DNA of 64,000 bases from Gammaproteobacteria bacterium (GTDB lineage: Bacteria > Pseudomonadota > Gammaproteobacteria > SZUA-152). How positions within the stretch are numbered: the stretch's first letter is position 1; each line of letters opens with the position of its first letter. The stretch lies in NCBI GenBank assembly GCA_013152545.1, contig JAADGF010000068.1, positions 27,400-91,399 on the forward strand, written 5' to 3'. Of the stretch, positions 5,551 to 36,779 are shown piece after piece. The position numbers were made by a program, and so were the translations under genes. The notes below the pieces were generated by a model. That model did not search any database. It saw nothing but the letters and a program-made list of their open reading frames with translations, and was not told the DNA's origin.

Positions 5551-5951
5551 TAGGCATTTTCTTGGCTTCCAAAGTAAATTAATCCACTCATTAGAAAGCA
5601 GAATATCCACTGACCAAGGACTAGTACTTGCTTGTTGTTAGTTCTTGAAAAAGCAACTGTGCCAAGCCATACAACGCCACATAAGAAAAAATAAATACTT
5701 AGTAACAATGAAATTTCTGTTTTTGCCTTTATCATTTCAGTGGTCGCTAACAATAGAAGCAAAACCCCTGCGAGAAATAAATCGACACTCACCCAATGCC
5801 AACCACTTCTTACTTGCACCCATGTTTCCTTATTTTTGTTTGGAGAATTTTCGACTGGTTTTAGAGCTTTGTATTCCTTATCACCTACAAATGCGTGGGC
5901 GAAAAAAGCAACTAATGACAAAACTCCTGCGATGAGAATAGAAATATTCAT
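5550..5951 (-). CDS. Small 4-TM hypothetical membrane protein, integron-cassette-like
   Basis: 133 aa hydrophobic ORF with AAGGA RBS, AT-rich. The stop codon lies inside GCCTAA, which is attC R''-like. Confidence 0.75.
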   Translation of the reverse strand: MNISILIAGVLSLVAFFAHAFVGDKEYKALKPVENSPNKNKETWVQVRSGWHWVSVDLFLAGVLLLLLATTEMIKAKTEISLLLSIYFFLCGVVWLGTVAFSRTNNKQVLVLGQWIFCFLMSGLIYFGSQENA

Positions 5952-6002
5952 ATTTTTCCTTTTGTTAATTTCATTGCATAATAATTAAATAACCATTTTC
6001 GT

Positions 6003-6395
6003 TCATCCTAGCCACACCAAGATAGCAACACAGAGCAACCCCGCCCAACCAGGGTGCTTTCCTTTGGTAGCAATTAGCACCATCAGAGAAGCGATAAACA
6101 TTGAAAACAGTATTGCATTTTCTACAAATACTTCAACGGTGGTTTGGGGAGAAGGAAGGGAAAGCCACAACAAAATCGAACCAAAACCCCACCCGAAAAC
6201 AGTTACAATATGCCAGCTCGCCCACAGAATTCTCACATGTCGTTCTTTGAGAATAGTACCCCCATCTATCGGGATAAAAGTGTCCTTACGCATATGGCGA
6301 AAAATAAGTGTTTCACCTAAGGCAGAGTGAATAATTCCCACGACGATTGCCAGACAACCAGCTATAGCAAAATATGTATTCATAAATTCCCTCAT
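6003..6395 (-). CDS. Small 4-TM hypothetical membrane protein, integron-cassette-like
   Basis: 130 aa hydrophobic ORF (IHSALGE...WHIVT...HPGW) starting about 40 bp after an attC-like site. The start may be at 6383. Confidence 0.75.
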   Translation of the reverse strand: MREFMNTYFAIAGCLAIVVGIIHSALGETLIFRHMRKDTFIPIDGGTILKERHVRILWASWHIVTVFGWGFGSILLWLSLPSPQTTVEVFVENAILFSMFIASLMVLIATKGKHPGWAGLLCVAILVWLG

Positions 6396-6579: not shown

Positions 6580-6787
6580 TATACCCATAACGACTGAGGT
6601 TTAGGTATACCTGCACGCCCTATTGATTTCATCACGTTTGTTAAACTGCCTTGCAATAGAGCGACTATTACGCGTCGTTTTGCCTTTCTTAAAAAACCTA
6701 CTTTCGCCTAAAAACGCCTGCTTTTGGTGGTGCTATGCAATGAATATGACTCACATTTACACCTAAATTTCAAACGCTATGGGTATA
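6580..6787 (-). mobile_element. ERIC-like MITE family A, full-length (208 bp)
   Basis: TIRs TATACCCATAACG... and ...CGCTATGGGTATA with TA ends. Central palindrome AATAGAGCGACTATT. Confidence 0.85.
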
Positions 6788-6848
6788 AAAAAGCTGACAT
6801 ATTCACTAACGCACCGATATGTAGTTCAAAGCGACAGCAAGTACGACT

Positions 6849-9074: not shown

Positions 9075-10472
9075 TTAACTTACAGAATAGTATTGTAAGG
9101 CATCTCGATCCAATGCGTTTAAATCCACTTTTAAATAAGCAATTTGGTCTTCAATAACAATCACCGCTTCCGCAACGCCAGTAATGCCCGTTAGCTCTGT
9201 CACTAGACGCCTGGCGCGCTGCTCATCGACTTCACCCACTTTTATCATGTGACTGCTAAGATAACGCGGACTTTGCATGGTGGAGGCGAAGAAGAACCAA
9301 ACCACCGCCAATATCGCACACATACCAAAAACGGCCTCCATGCCAAAAGCACCGTGCAACCACCCGCCGAGGACTCCCCCGAAAAACGCGCCAATAAATT
9401 GCGAGCTGGAATACACGCCCATAGCAGTACCCTTACGGTCAGGGGACGCCATTTTAGCAATCAGTGATGGCAACGTGGCTTCCAAAATATTAAAGGCCAC
9501 AAAAAATAAAAACAGTGAAAAGACGATCCCTGCCAACGTATCGTGCATTAGCATGAAAACCACTTCGGCAACTGCCAGTGTCATAATAGCGGCCGTAAAC
9601 ACTTCTTTTAGGTGCCGCTTTTTTTCGGCTAATATTACAAAAGGCACCATCAGCGCCATCGATACCACCATAACAGGCAAATAAACATACCAATGACTTT
9701 CTGCTACCAAGCCTACCTCGTCACGTAGCGCCAGCGGCAACACCACAAAAGTGGCGGTTAACATCATGTGCAATACGAGTACTCCAAAATCCAAGCGGAG
9801 TAGTTGTTTGTCTTTAATCACGGTTTTCAGCTGTTGCGGCGCAGTTTGTGTGTCACGATGAAAACTGCTTCGCACCGGGTTCGGCACTATAAACGTTAAA
9901 ACAGCCACGGCCCCCAATGCTAAAACGGCGGTTAACCAAAATATACCTTGCACGCCTATCCACTGACTGAGTATGGGGCCTGCCACCAGTGATACCATAA
10001 AAGCAACTCCGATACTCATGCCGATCACTGCCATAGCAGACAATCGATTTTCCTCACGGGTTAAATCGGCCGTTAATGCCATCACTGCCGCTGCTATCGC
10101 ACCAGCACCTTGCAGCGCACGCCCTAAAATCACGCCGCCCATGGTGTCGGATAACGCGGCCACTACACTGCCAACAGCAAAAATTAACAAACCGAAGGTA
10201 ATCACTTTTTTGCGGCCGATTCGGTCGGACAGCATACCAAAAGGAATTTGCAGTAGAGCCTGGGTCAAGCCGTAAATACCAATGGCTATTCCCACTAACA
10301 TGGGGGTCATCCCTTCTAAATCTTCAGCATAAAGCGCGAATACTGGCAAAATCATAAATAACCCCATCATGCGCAAGGCATATATACTGGCTAATGAAAA
10401 TACCGCTTTTCGTTCGGTTCGGGTCATCCCGTCTTGATTTATTTTCTTGTGTGGCGGGTTTTTATCTATCAC
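9075..10472 (-). CDS. yajR: MFS transporter, YajR-like
   Basis: 12-TM pattern, MFS motif GMLSDRIGRK, C-terminal YAM-like domain (AYLKVD), and ssb-MFS-uvrA synteny. Confidence 0.85.
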   Translation of the reverse strand: MIDKNPPHKKINQDGMTRTERKAVFSLASIYALRMMGLFMILPVFALYAEDLEGMTPMLVGIAIGIYGLTQALLQIPFGMLSDRIGRKKVITFGLLIFAVGSVVAALSDTMGGVILGRALQGAGAIAAAVMALTADLTREENRLSAMAVIGMSIGVAFMVSLVAGPILSQWIGVQGIFWLTAVLALGAVAVLTFIVPNPVRSSFHRDTQTAPQQLKTVIKDKQLLRLDFGVLVLHMMLTATFVVLPLALRDEVGLVAESHWYVYLPVMVVSMALMVPFVILAEKKRHLKEVFTAAIMTLAVAEVVFMLMHDTLAGIVFSLFLFFVAFNILEATLPSLIAKMASPDRKGTAMGVYSSSQFIGAFFGGVLGGWLHGAFGMEAVFGMCAILAVVWFFFASTMQSPRYLSSHMIKVGEVDEQRARRLVTELTGITGVAEAVIVIEDQIAYLKVDLNALDRDALQYYSVS

Positions 10473-30137: not shown

Positions 30138-31490
30138 TTAAGGTTGCTGAACTTGAGGAGGCTTGGAGGTATTTTTTTGAATGTAGGGCAATGCATTGAG
30201 TTTTGCTTGCAAACCAGACAATTGCTTCTCCAATGCAATGCGTTGCGCCGTTAACGCTTTATTTTTCACGGTTAACGTCTCAACCTGTTTCTTTAACAGG
30301 TCTTCATTTTTCTGCCTAGACTGCTGTTCCTCGATGGTTGCTGCTATTGGTTGTTGCGGGTTTTTTTTCTGGGGTGGTTGCTGCTGCTGAATCAAAGTAG
30401 CTTCATTGATGATATCACTGGAACCTTGAGCGACACCTGATGCTGGCGCTTCATTTTCAGCATTACTCTCCACTGCGATTTGGGCACTGCTCAATTCGGC
30501 TATTTTCAAGGCAAAGTCTTCTTTTTGCTTGATAACTTTTGCAGCTGTTGTCGCTAATAAAATCATTTGAGCATTTTGGGATTTATTGCGTATATCGCCT
30601 AATTTTAACGCCTTAGAAATTTTAGTGAATCCTTTTTCCTTTTTCAGCACATAATTTTCATGCTGATTTTTTTCTATTTGCAATATATCGCCAACGGCTC
30701 GCGTAATATGTAATAAACGAAAAGCAGCAAACTCAAAAGTATCTGCGGCTAATTTAACACCCTCAGTGTGCCGTAAATTTTTTTCGATATAAGCAAGAGC
30801 ATCATCTCGCGCCTGAATTGTTTCACTGTAAGTTTTAGGCGCATTGTCTTTTGCACCATATTGCTCTGCCTCGGCAAATACAGCTTCACCCCGGCTTAAA
30901 TATTTGGATTTAACAATACGAAGGTGAAACTTTCTCAAATCAACCAGCATGTTATTTTTATCTTTTACAAAATCCGCCTTTTTTTCGCTGTCGTCAAACA
31001 AGCTTTCCTTATGTTGCTCAATACGCTCAATTAACATCGTCATATTGGAAACGCGGCCGCGATATTCCATGGGGAACAAACGTTTTGCATTAAGCTCCTC
31101 CAGAATAATGCGCATTTCAATAAGTTCAGGCATCTCTCGTTCAACAATTATTTTAGTCTGAAAACCATTATTAAGCGCATTTTCTACTTTATAAAGACTT
31201 TGCAGTACATCTGTCTTTTTTTCGGGGTCGCGCATATTTACCCGCGCCCGCTTCATTGCAGACCGAGCAGTACGATAATTATTCGGTGAAAAAAGGGGTA
31301 GCACTTCGTCCCGGGCTTTATTGAACAGCTTTTGCGTATCACTAAAAATTTTGTCTATCGGTATGTCTTTATATTTGGCGACAACCACCTTATCAGGTAC
31401 CTTTTGAGGAATGAGTGAGGTTAATGGACTACACCCGGACAAAACCAACATTATCACTACACCCAAGACGGCTGCCCATTTTTTAAACAT
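30138..31490 (-). CDS. Hypothetical helical/coiled-coil lipoprotein
   Basis: MFKK + hydrophobic stretch + lipobox LSGC, helical repeats and a Q/P-rich tail. Start 31490 or 31514. Confidence 0.75.
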   Translation of the reverse strand: MFKKWAAVLGVVIMLVLSGCSPLTSLIPQKVPDKVVVAKYKDIPIDKIFSDTQKLFNKARDEVLPLFSPNNYRTARSAMKRARVNMRDPEKKTDVLQSLYKVENALNNGFQTKIIVEREMPELIEMRIILEELNAKRLFPMEYRGRVSNMTMLIERIEQHKESLFDDSEKKADFVKDKNNMLVDLRKFHLRIVKSKYLSRGEAVFAEAEQYGAKDNAPKTYSETIQARDDALAYIEKNLRHTEGVKLAADTFEFAAFRLLHITRAVGDILQIEKNQHENYVLKKEKGFTKISKALKLGDIRNKSQNAQMILLATTAAKVIKQKEDFALKIAELSSAQIAVESNAENEAPASGVAQGSSDIINEATLIQQQQPPQKKNPQQPIAATIEEQQSRQKNEDLLKKQVETLTVKNKALTAQRIALEKQLSGLQAKLNALPYIQKNTSKPPQVQQP

Positions 31491-31676
31491 TGCTATTCTG
31501 CCCGAAAATACCATAACCGCCTCTAGCCTCTAAGATTCAATCTATCAATGGAATTGTTTACCTAAATTGCCCAAGCATACCAGTACCCTATCAGTATTTC
31601 ACACTAAATTGCAGTGACTAAAACAACAAAAAATCGTTGTAATCGCTCACTGTTATACCATTTCGGACCTATACTT

Positions 31677-31997: not shown

Positions 31998-34631
31998 ATG
32001 CAAAACACCACATCATCACCTATTGAAAATCACACCCCCATGATGCAGCAATACCTGCGTATCAAGGCTGACCATCGCCGGTTGTTGCTTTTTTATCGAA
32101 TGGGGGATTTTTATGAACTCTTTTTCGACGATGCAAAAAAAGTCGCGAAACTGTTGGATATTACCCTGACCGCACGGGGTAAATCCAATGGCAACCCCAT
32201 CCCAATGGCGGGTGTACCCCATCATGCGGCTGAAAATTATTTAGCAAAATTGGTTAAAATGGGTGAATCAGTCGCGATTTGCGAACAAATTGGAGATCCA
32301 GCAAAATCCAAGGGGCCTGTTGAGCGTAAAGTAGTACGCATCGTCACGCCCGGCACAATCACTGATGAAGCATTCCTGGAGGAGCGAACCGACAACCTGA
32401 TTGTCGCCATTCATGCTCAAAATAACCACTACGGCATTGCCGCATTGGATGTTGCGAGTGGTCGTTTTACCGTTTTAAACGTTGATGACGAAGAAAGCCT
32501 GCTGGCTGAAATTGAGCGACTGCATCCTGCTGAGCTACTGGCAAGCGAAGACGCACAACTACCGACCGGAGTGACCACTCGCAATGGCGTGCAATTGCAA
32601 CCGCCATGGTTATTTGACAACCAGAGCGCCGTGCGCTTATTGACCTCACAGTTCAATACTCATGACTTATCTGGATTTGGCTGTGATCACATGGCACTGG
32701 CGCTTTGTGCTGCTGGCTGCATATTGCAATATGTTAAAGATACCCAACGTACCGCACTTCCACATATCCGCGCGCTTATCCCAGAAAATCGTGATGAAAG
32801 CATTATCATTGACGCCGCCAGCCGCAGAAACCTGGAACTGGAAACTAACCTTTCAGGCGGTGCTGACAATACCTTTTGCGCCGTCATCGACCGCACCGCA
32901 ACCCCCATGGCGAGCCGCATGCTACGCCGCTGGGTTAATCGGCCCATTCGTAATCGCACAATACTAAAACAACGCTATCAATGCATCCGCACGTTGGTTG
33001 ACAATCGTCATTTTGAAGAATTAGCAAATGCCTTACGAGGCCTAGGAGATCTGGAACGGATACTGACACGAATTGCGATTCGCTCAGCCAGGCCCCGAGA
33101 TTTTGCTCTACTAAGAGACACACTGGAGCGCATGCCCTTAGTACGCCGGGTTATTGCATCAATTTTAACCTCAGCAACCTCACCGTTGTTACTCGCACTC
33201 GATCAGCAAATTGATGAGTACCCTGATTTGCATCAACTCCTGATGAAGGCCATTATCGACACACCGCCTGCTTTAATACGTGACGGCGGGGTTATTGCTC
33301 CAGGTTATGATGAAGAACTGGATGAGTTGCGCACACTAAAAGAAAATGCCGGGCAGTATCTGGTGGACTTGGAAATACGTGAACGACAGGCTACGGGTAT
33401 CGCAAACCTGCGGGTAAGCTACAATCGGGTGCACGGATATTATATCGAAGTCAGTCGCGGCCAATCCGACAATGTACCTGAACATTATATTCGTCGACAA
33501 ACCCTAAAGGGTGCCGAACGTTACATCACCCCAGAACTAAAATCCTTCGAAGACAAGGTATTAAGCTCATCAGAACGGGCGCTTGCCCGGGAAAAAACGC
33601 TCTACGAGCAACTTTTTGATATCCTGGCCGAACACATTGGCCCGCTACAGGCCACCACGGCGGCGCTGGCCGAAATAGACGTGCTCAACAATTTAGCTGA
33701 ACGTGCAGATACTCTGGATTTTTGTGAACCCTTCCTGAGCGATGAGCCAGGCATCAATATTGAAGCCGGTCGGCATCCTGTCGTGGAACAAGTATTGGAT
33801 GAGCCTTTTATTCCTAACGATGTAATGATGCAAAATGACAGGCGGCTGTTAATCATTACCGGGCCCAACATGGGCGGTAAATCTACCTTTATGCGCCAAA
33901 CGGCATTGATCACTCTGCTGGCCCACGTTGGTAGTTTTGTACCCGCAAAACGTGCTCAACTTGGCCCTATTGATCGCATATTTACCCGTATTGGTGCAGC
34001 GGATGATCTCGCTGGTGGCCGTTCGACGTTTATGGTAGAAATGACTGAAACCGCTAATATTTTGCATAATGCCACGGCGCAGAGCCTGGTACTGATGGAT
34101 GAAATTGGGCGCGGCACCAGCACCTTTGATGGTTTGTCGCTGGCCTGGGCAAGTGCAGAGTACCTGACTCAGAAAGTAGCTGCCTTTACGCTGTTTGCCA
34201 CCCATTATTTCGAGCTAACCACATTACCGGAAACCTTATCCAGTGTTGCAAATGTGCACCTTGACGCCATAGAGCACGGCGATAAAATAGTATTTATGCA
34301 TGCAGTGAAGGAAGGTCCTGCTAACCAAAGTTATGGCTTACAAGTCGCTGCCCTGGCAGGCGTACCAAAACAGGTCATTACACAGGCAAAATCCAAACTG
34401 TATCAGCTGGAAGAAAGCAATGTATCCGCTAATCAATTTAAAGCATTGCAGCCAACACCAAGTGGTGATGAACCCTGTCAGCAATTTTCTCTGTTCGAGA
34501 ATGCGATACCCCATCCTGCGCTAGAAACCCTAAAAGACATGGACATTGACGCGCTGAGTCCACGTCAGGCACTGGATACGCTCTATTTATTAAAAAAATT
34601 AGCGGAGGATGGGGGGAATGCGGCTAATTAG
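31998..34631 (+). CDS. mutS: DNA mismatch repair protein MutS
   Basis: [25 protein letters not shown] and DEIGRGTST. Confidence 0.99.
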
Positions 34632-34787: not shown

Positions 34788-35014
34788 GCAAAACCATTGA
34801 AAAGTAAGTAGAGCATATTTTTACCACCTCTGGGCCATTACGGACCAGTGTAATAGCTCGCCATTACGTCTCATCGCGCCTTGCCAGTCTCGATAATTTA
34901 TCGTAAAAAAACGCATGCTACATATCGTCCAATTGATGATTTTAGGTTAAATCATTTTTTATCAAATTAACCCGACAACAGTAATTAAAAGTAGCGAAAT
35001 TTTTGGAGAATATA

Positions 35015-35338
35015 ATGACATATGTCGTTGTTGAAAACTGCATAAAATGCAAATACACCGATTGTGTGGAAGTCTGTCCGGTCGATTGCTTTCATGAAGG
35101 ACCCAATTATCTGGTCATTGACCCGGAAGAATGCATTGATTGCTCATTATGCGAGCCCGAATGTCCAGCAGAAGCTATTTTTGACGAAGATGATGTGCCA
35201 GAGGATCAAAAACAATTTATCGCGTTAAACGCTGAGTTGGCGGCAATATGGCCTGTTATTAATGAAACCAAAACACCACCGGCAGATGCCAAGGAATGGG
35301 ATGGTGTTAAAAATAAATTGAAGAACCTGAAACGATAA
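35015..35338 (+). CDS. fdxA: 7Fe ferredoxin FdxA
   Basis: [26 protein letters not shown]...[12 protein letters not shown], with mutS-fdxA synteny. Confidence 0.95.
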
Positions 35339-35467
35339 CAGCTGCCAGCACGCATTTTTTATGTGTAACAGAAAGCGTTAATGCAGAAAAATGTAGCAAG
35401 GAGTTAAGCGCAAGCCTGAAACCGCATCACTATCAAATGAGCAATCAACAAGAATATAGAGTGACTT

Positions 35468-35592
35468 AAAAATAGGTGAAGGCGACTGCTTCTAGCCGCC
35501 TTCTGTACCTCCATGCCGGACTTTTCCCTGTCCGCGTCTAATCCCTATGACGAGTTTACTTCCTTCTCTGCTTCCCTGATGCCTTCCCTGTT
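35468..35592 (-). ncRNA. Candidate CsrA/RsmA-sequestering sRNA (RsmZ/RsmY/CsrB-like)
   Basis: Six A(N)GGA motifs in about 85 nt, two in hairpin loops (CGGAC-AGGGAAAA-GTCCG and CGTC-ATAGGGATTA-GACG). Terminator GAAGGCG...CGCCTTC plus T-run. Position matches Pseudomonas mutS-fdxA-rsmZ. Confidence 0.75.
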
Positions 35593-35790
35593 AAATTAAG
35601 CTAGCAGAGGTTTCAGGTGTTAATTTATCAAATTCAATTATTTTAGCAACCCCCCGAAAGTACACTAACAAAAACACCCTTATTCCCCAAGAAAATGATC
35701 AATTACTCTTTAATTCAGCAAGTTAAAGTTTATTAATACCATATAGCACACCGCAACACTACATTAACGCCTCATTTAATCTGACATTCA

Positions 35791-35808
35791 TATAGGATTT
35801 AACCTACA
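35791..35808. promoter_or_regulatory. GacA/UvrY-box-like upstream activating sequence
   Basis: TGTAGG-ttaaat-CCTATA on the minus strand versus consensus TGTAAG-N6-CTTACA, about 200 bp upstream of the sRNA. Confidence 0.55.
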
Positions 35809-36390
35809 AAATGACAAAACACAGGCGCATTGTTTTATCCAACCGTAGTAAAATTACTCGATGCAAGCTATGTTGTCTCTGTCGTCTTATAATAATTTAC
35901 AACTGAAACACGCCCCTTATAATCATGAAGTTATATAGCGGCACCTGAGCTTGCTGATAATCCTATAAACTTGCAATGTTAAATCTAAATTCACGCTATA
36001 ATCGCACCGAAGTGGCATCTCGTCCTGTTGTTATCCTCACTGTATCGATCAGTTATTCGGAATTAAAAAGCAACCTTAATCATATATACTGCATTGACAT
36101 TGGGCATAAAGACAATGCCAGGCACTCAATAATCATGAATATAATTCAAGAATAATATTATAAGCTTCAGCAAGCCCTATCTGCAAAAGCCCTAAGAGTA
36201 AAACTGTGTTTCATAAATAAAATCTATTATGGTCATAACTAATCTACGATTGAATATCCCTAACAAGCGTAGAATACTATGGCAATAGCGGGGCAGAAAA
36301 TTTAACGTAGCTCGTAACCAGGCTACTGAGCGAGCACACTTATTTTCAGCATATTTGGGCACATACACAAAATATACACAAACAAGAAAC

Positions 36391-36420
36391 TATACCCAAA
36401 GCATTTGAGATTTCGGTATA
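36391..36420. repeat. Minimal family A element/terminus
   Basis: TATACCCAAAGCATTTGAGATTTCGGTATA. Confidence 0.6.
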
Positions 36421-36779
36421 GACTACGTTGCCATCATAAATAAACTTATACACTATAACGATGACCTGACACAATGAAGACCAAAACTTAACGCAACCAC
36501 TAACTTGCTTTAATGGTTGCCAGTATAAAACAACAACGCTTAGAACCTGTAAAGCAATAAGTTGGACAGATTGCGCCGGATGTCGTTTCGTCTTCAAGGC
36601 GCGGAAATGGGCTCCCCAAGGGGACTTCTTCCAGGGCGCATACTCGTTGTATACAAGCTTTTGCACAACGCCGAAGACACAAGGATAGACAAGCTAAATG
36701 TTCACGTTATTACTTTACAGCCCCATTAGTTACGCTATTAATAGACAACCGAAAAATTGAGTTACCGTAAAAATGCACC

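Follow-up and report, generated by a model that had tools for sequence, protein, structure and literature searches.

A GGA in a hairpin loop is the known geometry for binding by the translational regulator CsrA (RsmA). In E. coli, multiple GGA motifs in CsrB and CsrC (RF00018 and RF00084) titrate CsrA under BarA-UvrY. In Pseudomonas, RsmZ (PrrB; RF00166) is a short (~120-150 nt), stand-alone RNA with an intrinsic terminator, in which GGA recurs both in hairpin loops and in single-stranded linkers, and it is encoded, in genomes with GacA, convergently with fdxA and downstream of mutS, which we take to adjoin fdxA in this genus. Table 1 of Kulkarni et al. (2006; PMC1488887) places rsmZ of P. aeruginosa between fdxA and rpoS, in the orientation '-> <- <-', and the same paper gives CsrB1 and CsrB2 of V. 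fischeri lengths of 416 nt and 420 nt and 21 sites apiece. Five criteria for CsrA-regulating sRNAs are set out there: intergenic location, motif density, a Rho-independent terminator, GGA in loops or unpaired, and an upstream UvrY/GacA site. As described in two sources (PMC1488887; Fakhry et al. 2017, PMC5568370), ANGGA density combined with a terminator is an established approach to genome-wide prediction.

The locus compared here with these systems lies in the window, the whole 64,000 nt stretch of DNA that was analysed, and had been proposed in a sequence-only reading to encode an unannotated Csr/Rsm-type sponge sRNA of about 125 nt at an rsmZ-syntenic position. The gene is real, conserved, and present in a single copy; it encodes no protein, and its RNA is built like a CsrA/RsmA sponge. 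It represents a new sequence family within a known type, unrecognised by current Rfam. The features of the region, numbered along the window, are as follows.

31998..34631, plus strand: mutS, upstream of fdxA (Pfam MutS domains I-V)
35003..35338, plus strand: fdxA, convergent with the sRNA gene (NCBIfam FdxA_Protbact, 166.3 bits, cut-off 135; Pfam DUF3470 and Fer4)
35468..35614, minus strand: predicted sRNA transcript, ~147 nt, its 5′ end deduced from the promoter and its 3′ end from the terminator T-run
35468..35503, minus strand: intrinsic terminator from a terminator scan, with a 10-bp GC-rich stem (35503-35478) and a T-run (35472-35468)
35507..35514, minus strand: GGA site 6 (AUGGAGGU), Shine-Dalgarno-like, between hairpin 2 and the terminator; GGA in 30/30 homologues
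35517..35534, minus strand: hairpin 2 (CGGAC/GUCCG), its loop being GGA site 5 (CAGGGAAAA); loop GGA in 27/30
35536..35551, minus strand: hairpin 1, its loop being GGA site 4 (UAGGGAU); loop GGA in 30/30
35560..35566, minus strand: GGA site 3 (GAAGGAA); kept in 28/30
35572..35578, minus strand: GGA site 2 (CAGGGAA); kept in 29/30
35584..35590, minus strand: GGA site 1 (CAGGGAA), predicted to be unpaired; GGA within ±4 alignment columns in 30/30
35622..35630, minus strand: predicted extended -10 (TGATAAATT)
35644..35649, minus strand: predicted -35 hexamer (TTGCTA)
35655..35670, minus strand: weak candidate activator site (TGTTAGTGTACTTTCG), the best GacA-box match, upstream of the -35

The ANGGA-rich string of the sequence-only reading corresponds to 35592..35508 on the minus strand, and all that was reported of it is found in the sequence, with six A(N)GGA motifs followed by a GC hairpin and a T-run. 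The GGA triplets are at 35587-85, 35575-73, 35563-61, 35544-42, 35527-25, and 35512-10; three are in a 5′ purine-rich stretch, two are in hairpin loops, and one, as GGAGG, is just before the terminator. The two motifs that had been assigned to stem loops are the fourth and fifth (sites 4 and 5). The region is intergenic, between fdxA and the next ORFs, with no ORF of more than 100 aa across the sRNA. ORFs of at least 20 aa that overlap it are only 21-36 aa and are without conservation, and the longest ATG ORFs across 30 homologues are 12-39 aa and vary in frame and sequence. Judged by its reading frames, the locus is non-coding. Two other kinds of element were considered and ruled out: a small-protein gene, because no ORF is kept among the homologues, and a cis-acting leader or riboswitch, because there is no same-strand gene downstream (fdxA is convergent) and the context shifts between genera.

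Homologues were identified across the order. In BLAST with a 201-nt region, one sister genus had DNA of 76-79 % identity, and a second shared a 46-nt core. A covariance model (R1), built from nine sequences, had a single full-length match in each of 31 genomes out of the 32 species-level genomes from seven genera, the source genome (G000) included; within this genome set the family is the whole order. In the source genome the sole match covers positions 1-147 with 129.6 bits. There was no R1 match in G001, which is 87 % complete, and one additional weak match (25.3 bits) in G003. Alignment A3 comprises 30 homologues from the 31 genomes with matches, G021 being left out of all 30-sequence counts. 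Allowing ±4 alignment columns, 30, 29, 28, 30, 27, and 30 of these homologues retain GGA at sites 1 to 6, respectively, and the sequence between the sites varies; conservation of the GGA loops in relatives, which the sequence-only reading had suggested checking, was thus observed for both. The source sRNA has a seventh GGA, in a stem (that of hairpin 2), and just five of the 30 homologues retain it.

The 5′ ends of the homologues differ in structure. In genera g4 and g7 there is a stable 5′ hairpin with a UUCG-type loop (e.g. TTGCCTTCGGGCAA, in the 5′ 25-30 nt of A3), and one homologue from g3 (L044) has a clean GGC-GAAA-GCC hairpin. The 5′ end in the source genome has no UUCG-type or GAAA hairpin; its predicted pairing partner is a GCAGAG that follows GGA site 2.

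A TTGNNN/TGnTAnnnT promoter, TTGNNN-N12-15-TGNTANNNT, is present in all 30 homologues no more than 60 nt upstream of the model start, and in 28 of them TGNTANNNT is within the 25 nt before it. The predicted -35 hexamer of the source genome aligns with TTGTCA, TTGTTA, or TTGTGA in the homologues. Based on the position of this conserved promoter, the transcript probably starts near 35614, not 35592, which gives an RNA of ~147 nt and revises the ~125 nt of the earlier proposal. The -10 proposed at that time, TGCTAGCTT, is present at 35606-35598, but it is inside the predicted transcript, and it was rejected because it has no conservation among the homologues.

The consensus halves of the GacA box are TGTAAG and CTTACA. 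No canonical GacA/UvrY box was found upstream of the sRNA in the source genome, where the candidate TGTTAGTGTACTTTCG agrees with these halves at 9/12 positions across a 4-nt spacer and is no better than matches in shuffles (p = 0.40). Partly similar strings are at the equivalent place in genera g3 and g7. Two loci of g6 score 11/12 and 10/12, with a 7-nt spacer, centred about -65, and eight of the 13 loci of g7 score 10/12, with a 5-nt spacer, adjoining the -35; the remaining five score 7-9/12.

In the consensus structure, two GGA sites are in hairpin loops and four are unpaired. In A3, which was fitted to the model so that the structure is somewhat favoured, 93.5 % of cells are paired, nine out of 24 pairs are changed on both sides, and 34 cells are changed on both sides; none of 500 shuffles matched these values, and sliding the partners by 1-3 columns as a control left 32-51 % of cells paired. 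The same helices were predicted by RNAalifold on an independent MAFFT alignment. The helix of hairpin 1 is 99.2 % paired, with double-sided changes in two of its four pairs, that of hairpin 2 is 98.0 % paired, with such changes in three of five, and the terminator helix is 96.0 % paired across the 30 homologues, with double changes in four of ten. In the source genome itself hairpin 1 is weak, with three clean pairs only. Helix 3, in which the GGAGG stretch pairs with the 3′ flank of the terminator, is poorly supported, and because it is 79.1 % paired with no double changes, GGA site 6 is probably free rather than paired. The minimum free energy fold of the source sequence alone leaves sites 3-5 unpaired and pulls sites 2 and 6, and one base of site 1, into pairs that are either absent from the consensus or unsupported by covariation. 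Over 147 nt this fold has -41.2 kcal/mol (z = -2.40), with two out of 200 shuffles folding equally well; for the slightly different stretch 35455-35600, z is -1.44.

The density of the motifs was compared with dinucleotide-preserving shuffles of the 147-nt RNA (n = 5000). ANGGA occurs six times against 1.65 ± 1.13 expected, at least six being present in five of the 5000 shuffles. Plain GGA occurs seven times against 4.82 ± 1.48, which is not unusual; since 651 of the 5000 shuffles reach seven, much of the raw GGA count is due to purine-rich composition. Across both strands of the 4.5-Mb genome, six ANGGA are found at 171 of 8,980,526 positions of a 150-nt window, which are five loci. Four of these are inside ORFs of 202-599 aa, and the sRNA locus is the sole one outside ORFs of more than 100 aa, making it the densest such cluster in the genome.

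A second Rsm-type sRNA was not found in the source genome: R1 has no second match there, and no RsmY-like or RsmX-like partner was identified. Seven other non-ORF loci with five ANGGA per 150 nt were inspected, three of which have 7 to 9 GGA, and none has the compact layout of motifs plus terminator. Outside the window, a single-copy intergenic element was seen on contig C59 (~10079-10339, minus strand; L149/L150), with a long closing stem, a very stable fold (-83.9 kcal/mol over 205 nt), and nine GGA in 150 nt, of which several are presented by hairpin loops. No Rfam family matches this element, and it lacks conservation in the family, where 31 genomes gave one weak match.

A stand-alone, conserved, terminator-ended gene could also encode a trans-acting sRNA that base-pairs with mRNAs, with or without Hfq, its GGA motifs being a seed or anti-Shine-Dalgarno-related, and this would suit a plain GGA count within the range of purine-rich composition, the lack of a canonical GacA box, and the fact that csrA was not found in the source assembly. 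However, the six GGA sites are kept individually while the intervening sequence varies, and two of them are in the loops of covarying stems, as in CsrA binding. GGA-rich sequence is, moreover, Shine-Dalgarno-like and not its complement, and would therefore not pair with ribosome-binding sites, and GacA and CsrA co-occur with the sRNA across the order. Base-pairing as the function of this RNA is accordingly regarded as improbable, and a Csr/Rsm-type sponge is preferred.

Comparison with the described Csr/Rsm RNAs supports a known type with an unfamiliar sequence. No Rfam family reached its gathering score in the window, and none of the Rfam Csr/Rsm models matched 35200-35900 at E ≤ 10. Among eight homologue loci, two have RsmZ matches, of 19.9 and 16.6 bits (gathering 44), and one homologue has a partial CsrB match of 16.7 bits (gathering 71). 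A further 20 homologue loci have no match to the Csr/Rsm clan at E ≤ 10, and 17 mutS loci have no Rfam match at gathering. The sRNA is therefore outside every Rfam Csr/Rsm family (RF00166, CsrB, CsrC, RsmY, and rsmX; clan CL00106), in line with the weak or absent match that the sequence-only reading took as the sign of a new family.

The likeness to RsmZ is in the short, stand-alone form, the intrinsic terminator, the GGA motifs in loops and linkers, the place after mutS and convergent with fdxA, and a genome that encodes GacA. The sRNA differs from RsmZ in that the RF00166 model fails to detect it (19.9 bits in the best homologue against 44), no rpoS was found upstream, there is no canonical 18-bp GacA box, and one copy was found per genome, with the fdxA position in nine out of 30 homologue loci. 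With RsmY and RsmZ of Legionella pneumophila and other predicted gammaproteobacterial Rsm sRNAs it shares the signature on which prediction was based in PMC1488887 and PMC5568370, namely an intergenic location, dense A(R/N)GGA, a terminator, and GGA in loops, but it is a different sequence family. Compared with CsrB and CsrC it is much shorter, with six sites in ~147 nt, although the mechanism proposed for it is alike, multiple GGA motifs titrating CsrA, probably under BarA-UvrY. Four of the five features listed by Kulkarni et al. (2006; PMC1488887), i-iv, are present in the sRNA; under that scheme, an sRNA with no clear conserved upstream site (v), as here, would be placed with the 'additional predictions', which have i-iv but not v.

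The partners expected of such an RNA were sought in the genomes. Of the regulatory genes that the sequence-only reading had suggested looking for, gacA is present in the source genome, where a UvrY/SirA/GacA equivalog was found on contig C68 at 5666-6295 (300.7 bits, cut-off 280), and the equivalog is in 31 of the 32 genomes of the order. For gacS, a full-length BarA-like hybrid kinase was found, but at 685.8 bits it is below the equivalog cut-off of 890. CsrA is present in 27 of the 31 sister genomes. In the source assembly, csrA was found neither by Pfam search nor by tblastn with the CsrA of four relatives, and a genome without csrA had been named beforehand as grounds for rejecting a sponge; formally the assembly is such a genome, however this is uninformative because recA, alaS, and lysC were likewise not found in it. 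The assembly is rated 97.9 % complete, yet neither recA nor alaS has a match, by searches that were positive in 14 out of 14 control genomes, and the lysC-type aspartokinase was not found.

In a relative (G005), pilC, cinA, recA, recX, alaS, lysC, and csrA are in one block. The window's own contig, C55, carries the pilC homologue of the source genome (76 % identical) 1.3 kb from its start, and it begins (L152:1-3600) with an IS66-like fragment, a monooxygenase-like gene, pilC, and pilB, in that order. The match of the fragment to an IS66 transposase is weak (21.1 bits, cut-off 23.1), and the contig is probably broken at a repeat. Because recA, alaS, and lysC are also missing and are linked to csrA in G005, it is probable, from gene order, that the block containing csrA is unassembled in the source genome.

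An RNA of this kind might instead sequester an RNA-binding protein other than CsrA, csrA having been truly lost in the species, as CsrA was not found in the source genome nor in four of the 31 sister genomes, and these four do carry the sRNA. Against this, those four genomes are 73-95 % complete, and the absence from the source assembly looks technical, given that recA, alaS, and lysC, which are beside csrA in G005, are missing with it. A non-CsrA partner is therefore very unlikely, and CsrA is retained as the presumed ligand.

The description of the source organism as sulfur-oxidizing fits, since SoxB (860 bits, cut-off 550) and DsrA (605 bits, cut-off 393) are encoded. In a literature search of limited coverage, no paper was found on rsmZ with sulfur oxidation, and no relevant paper on csrA with gacA or csrB in sulfur-oxidizing bacteria.

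As had been reported from the sequence, the sRNA gene of the source genome is convergent with fdxA after mutS, its 3′ end (35468) being on the opposite strand and 130 nt past the fdxA stop; the rsmZ-like position is, however, kept in nine out of 30 loci only. These, with fdxA within 1.5 kb of the sRNA, are the source locus and all eight g4 loci, so that the fdxA-convergent position is found in only two of the six genera that carry the sRNA. Upstream in the source genome is a minus-strand ORF of 106 aa (36346-36666), followed by a plus-strand gene with Sel1 repeats. In Pseudomonas the place of the 106-aa ORF, upstream of rsmZ, is taken by rpoS; neither this ORF nor a 458-aa ORF (30138-31514, minus strand) matches a Pfam family at E ≤ 0.001. 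Six of the other 21 loci were inspected (L039, L047, L050, L053, L058, and L063; genera g3, g6, and g7), and in every one the sRNA is flanked, on one side or both, by a gene for a PD-(D/E)XK nuclease (addB-like) or for a UvrD-like helicase (addA-like), and is on the strand opposite to the identified flanking gene or genes. In three of the six, the sRNA is between addB-like and addA-like genes. Surroundings of this sort are unusual for a regulatory RNA and unlike the fdxA position of the source genome and g4. That the element is not a gene of its own but a terminator, 3′-end region, or antisense element serving fdxA, with accidental purine richness, is suggested by its place 130 nt past the fdxA stop on the opposite strand, but it is extremely unlikely given the conserved promoter of the sRNA, the 21 of 30 homologue loci that have an intact sRNA and no fdxA within 1.5 kb, and the T-run, which follows the hairpin on the minus strand only.

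Whether the position next to fdxA reflects common descent with RsmZ was considered using loci from outside the order. In 17 of 80 MutS loci from named records, fdxA immediately follows mutS; the closest named relatives of the MutS are from 'Gammaproteobacteria bacterium' MAGs (72-74 % identity), followed by Thiothrix and Porticoccus (~62 %). Two Pseudomonadales MAG loci (L067 and L077) have GGA-rich RNAs convergent with fdxA. These are matched by RsmZ below threshold (25.1, 20.7, and 20.0 bits) and weakly by R1, and they are preceded by the -10 string of the order's sRNA, TTTGnTAAATTA. In L067, from a Ketobacteraceae MAG, there are two such GGA-rich, terminator-ended RNAs in tandem (6152-6269 and 6705-6842, minus strand), convergent with fdxA upstream. 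One of them is matched by Rfam RsmZ at 25.1 bits against a gathering score of 44, and because the match is no higher, RsmZ-like genes at the fdxA position escape Rfam in Pseudomonadales relatives too. When 149 genomes sampled from the class's other families were scanned with a broader model (R2), four had a match. Three of these four also match CsrB, CsrC, or rsmX weakly, and one of the four (L145) is convergent with fdxA from about 770 nt away.

The pattern at L067, L077, and L145 fits deep positional orthology with RsmZ but is no proof of it, and independent convergence on a short, GGA-rich form is a genuine alternative. The combined proposal that the sRNA is a true RsmZ orthologue, that it is the sole CsrA antagonist RNA of the order, and that it is driven from a non-canonical activator site is tentative and, taken as a whole, rather unlikely to hold in full.

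The Csr/Rsm-type sponge that was proposed from the sequence stands, with six conserved GGA sites, covarying loops, a conserved promoter and terminator, a single copy, and GacA in the genome. A CsrA-antagonist function is, from these comparisons, highly probable, and there is similarly strong confidence in the full explanation, including the anatomy and the mechanism. In this explanation, a stand-alone minus-strand gene, from about 35614 to 35468, would be transcribed from an extended -10 promoter of the sigma-70 type as far as the intrinsic terminator, giving a non-coding RNA of ~147 nt. The six GGA motifs displayed by this RNA would be bound by dimers of CsrA (RsmA), and when abundant the sRNA would titrate CsrA off mRNA leaders, relieving its control. 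By analogy, transcription of the sRNA is probably driven by the BarA/GacS-GacA (UvrY) two-component system. From the genomic evidence we infer that the RNA is transcribed, where exactly it starts, that it binds CsrA, and that it depends on GacA.

Such an sRNA would be expected by specialists in a gammaproteobacterium with GacA and CsrA, and the value of the finding is in the annotation, in a seed alignment for the family, and in the hint of an ancient fdxA-linked RsmZ locus. The alignment of 30 sequences with covariation is good enough to serve as the seed of a new RNA family, through which the gene could enter annotation pipelines. There is also a caution for the use of assemblies, since one that is rated 97.9 % complete is without recA, alaS, lysC, and csrA, and calls of gene absence from assemblies of this kind are therefore unfit to refute a regulatory circuit.

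For a whole order of sulfur-oxidising Gammaproteobacteria, the sRNA supplies an RNA component that was missing from the Gac/Csr post-transcriptional switch and gives a handle on the targets of CsrA in chemolithoautotrophs, for example in carbon storage, motility, and sulfur metabolism. If orthology with RsmZ is true, the mutS-fdxA-rsmZ arrangement and the TTTGnTAAATTA promoter predate the split of the order from the Pseudomonadales. If the combined proposal of a sole, orthologous antagonist with a non-canonical activator site is also true, the Gac/Csr circuit in these chemolithotrophs would be simpler, and wired differently, than in the model organisms.
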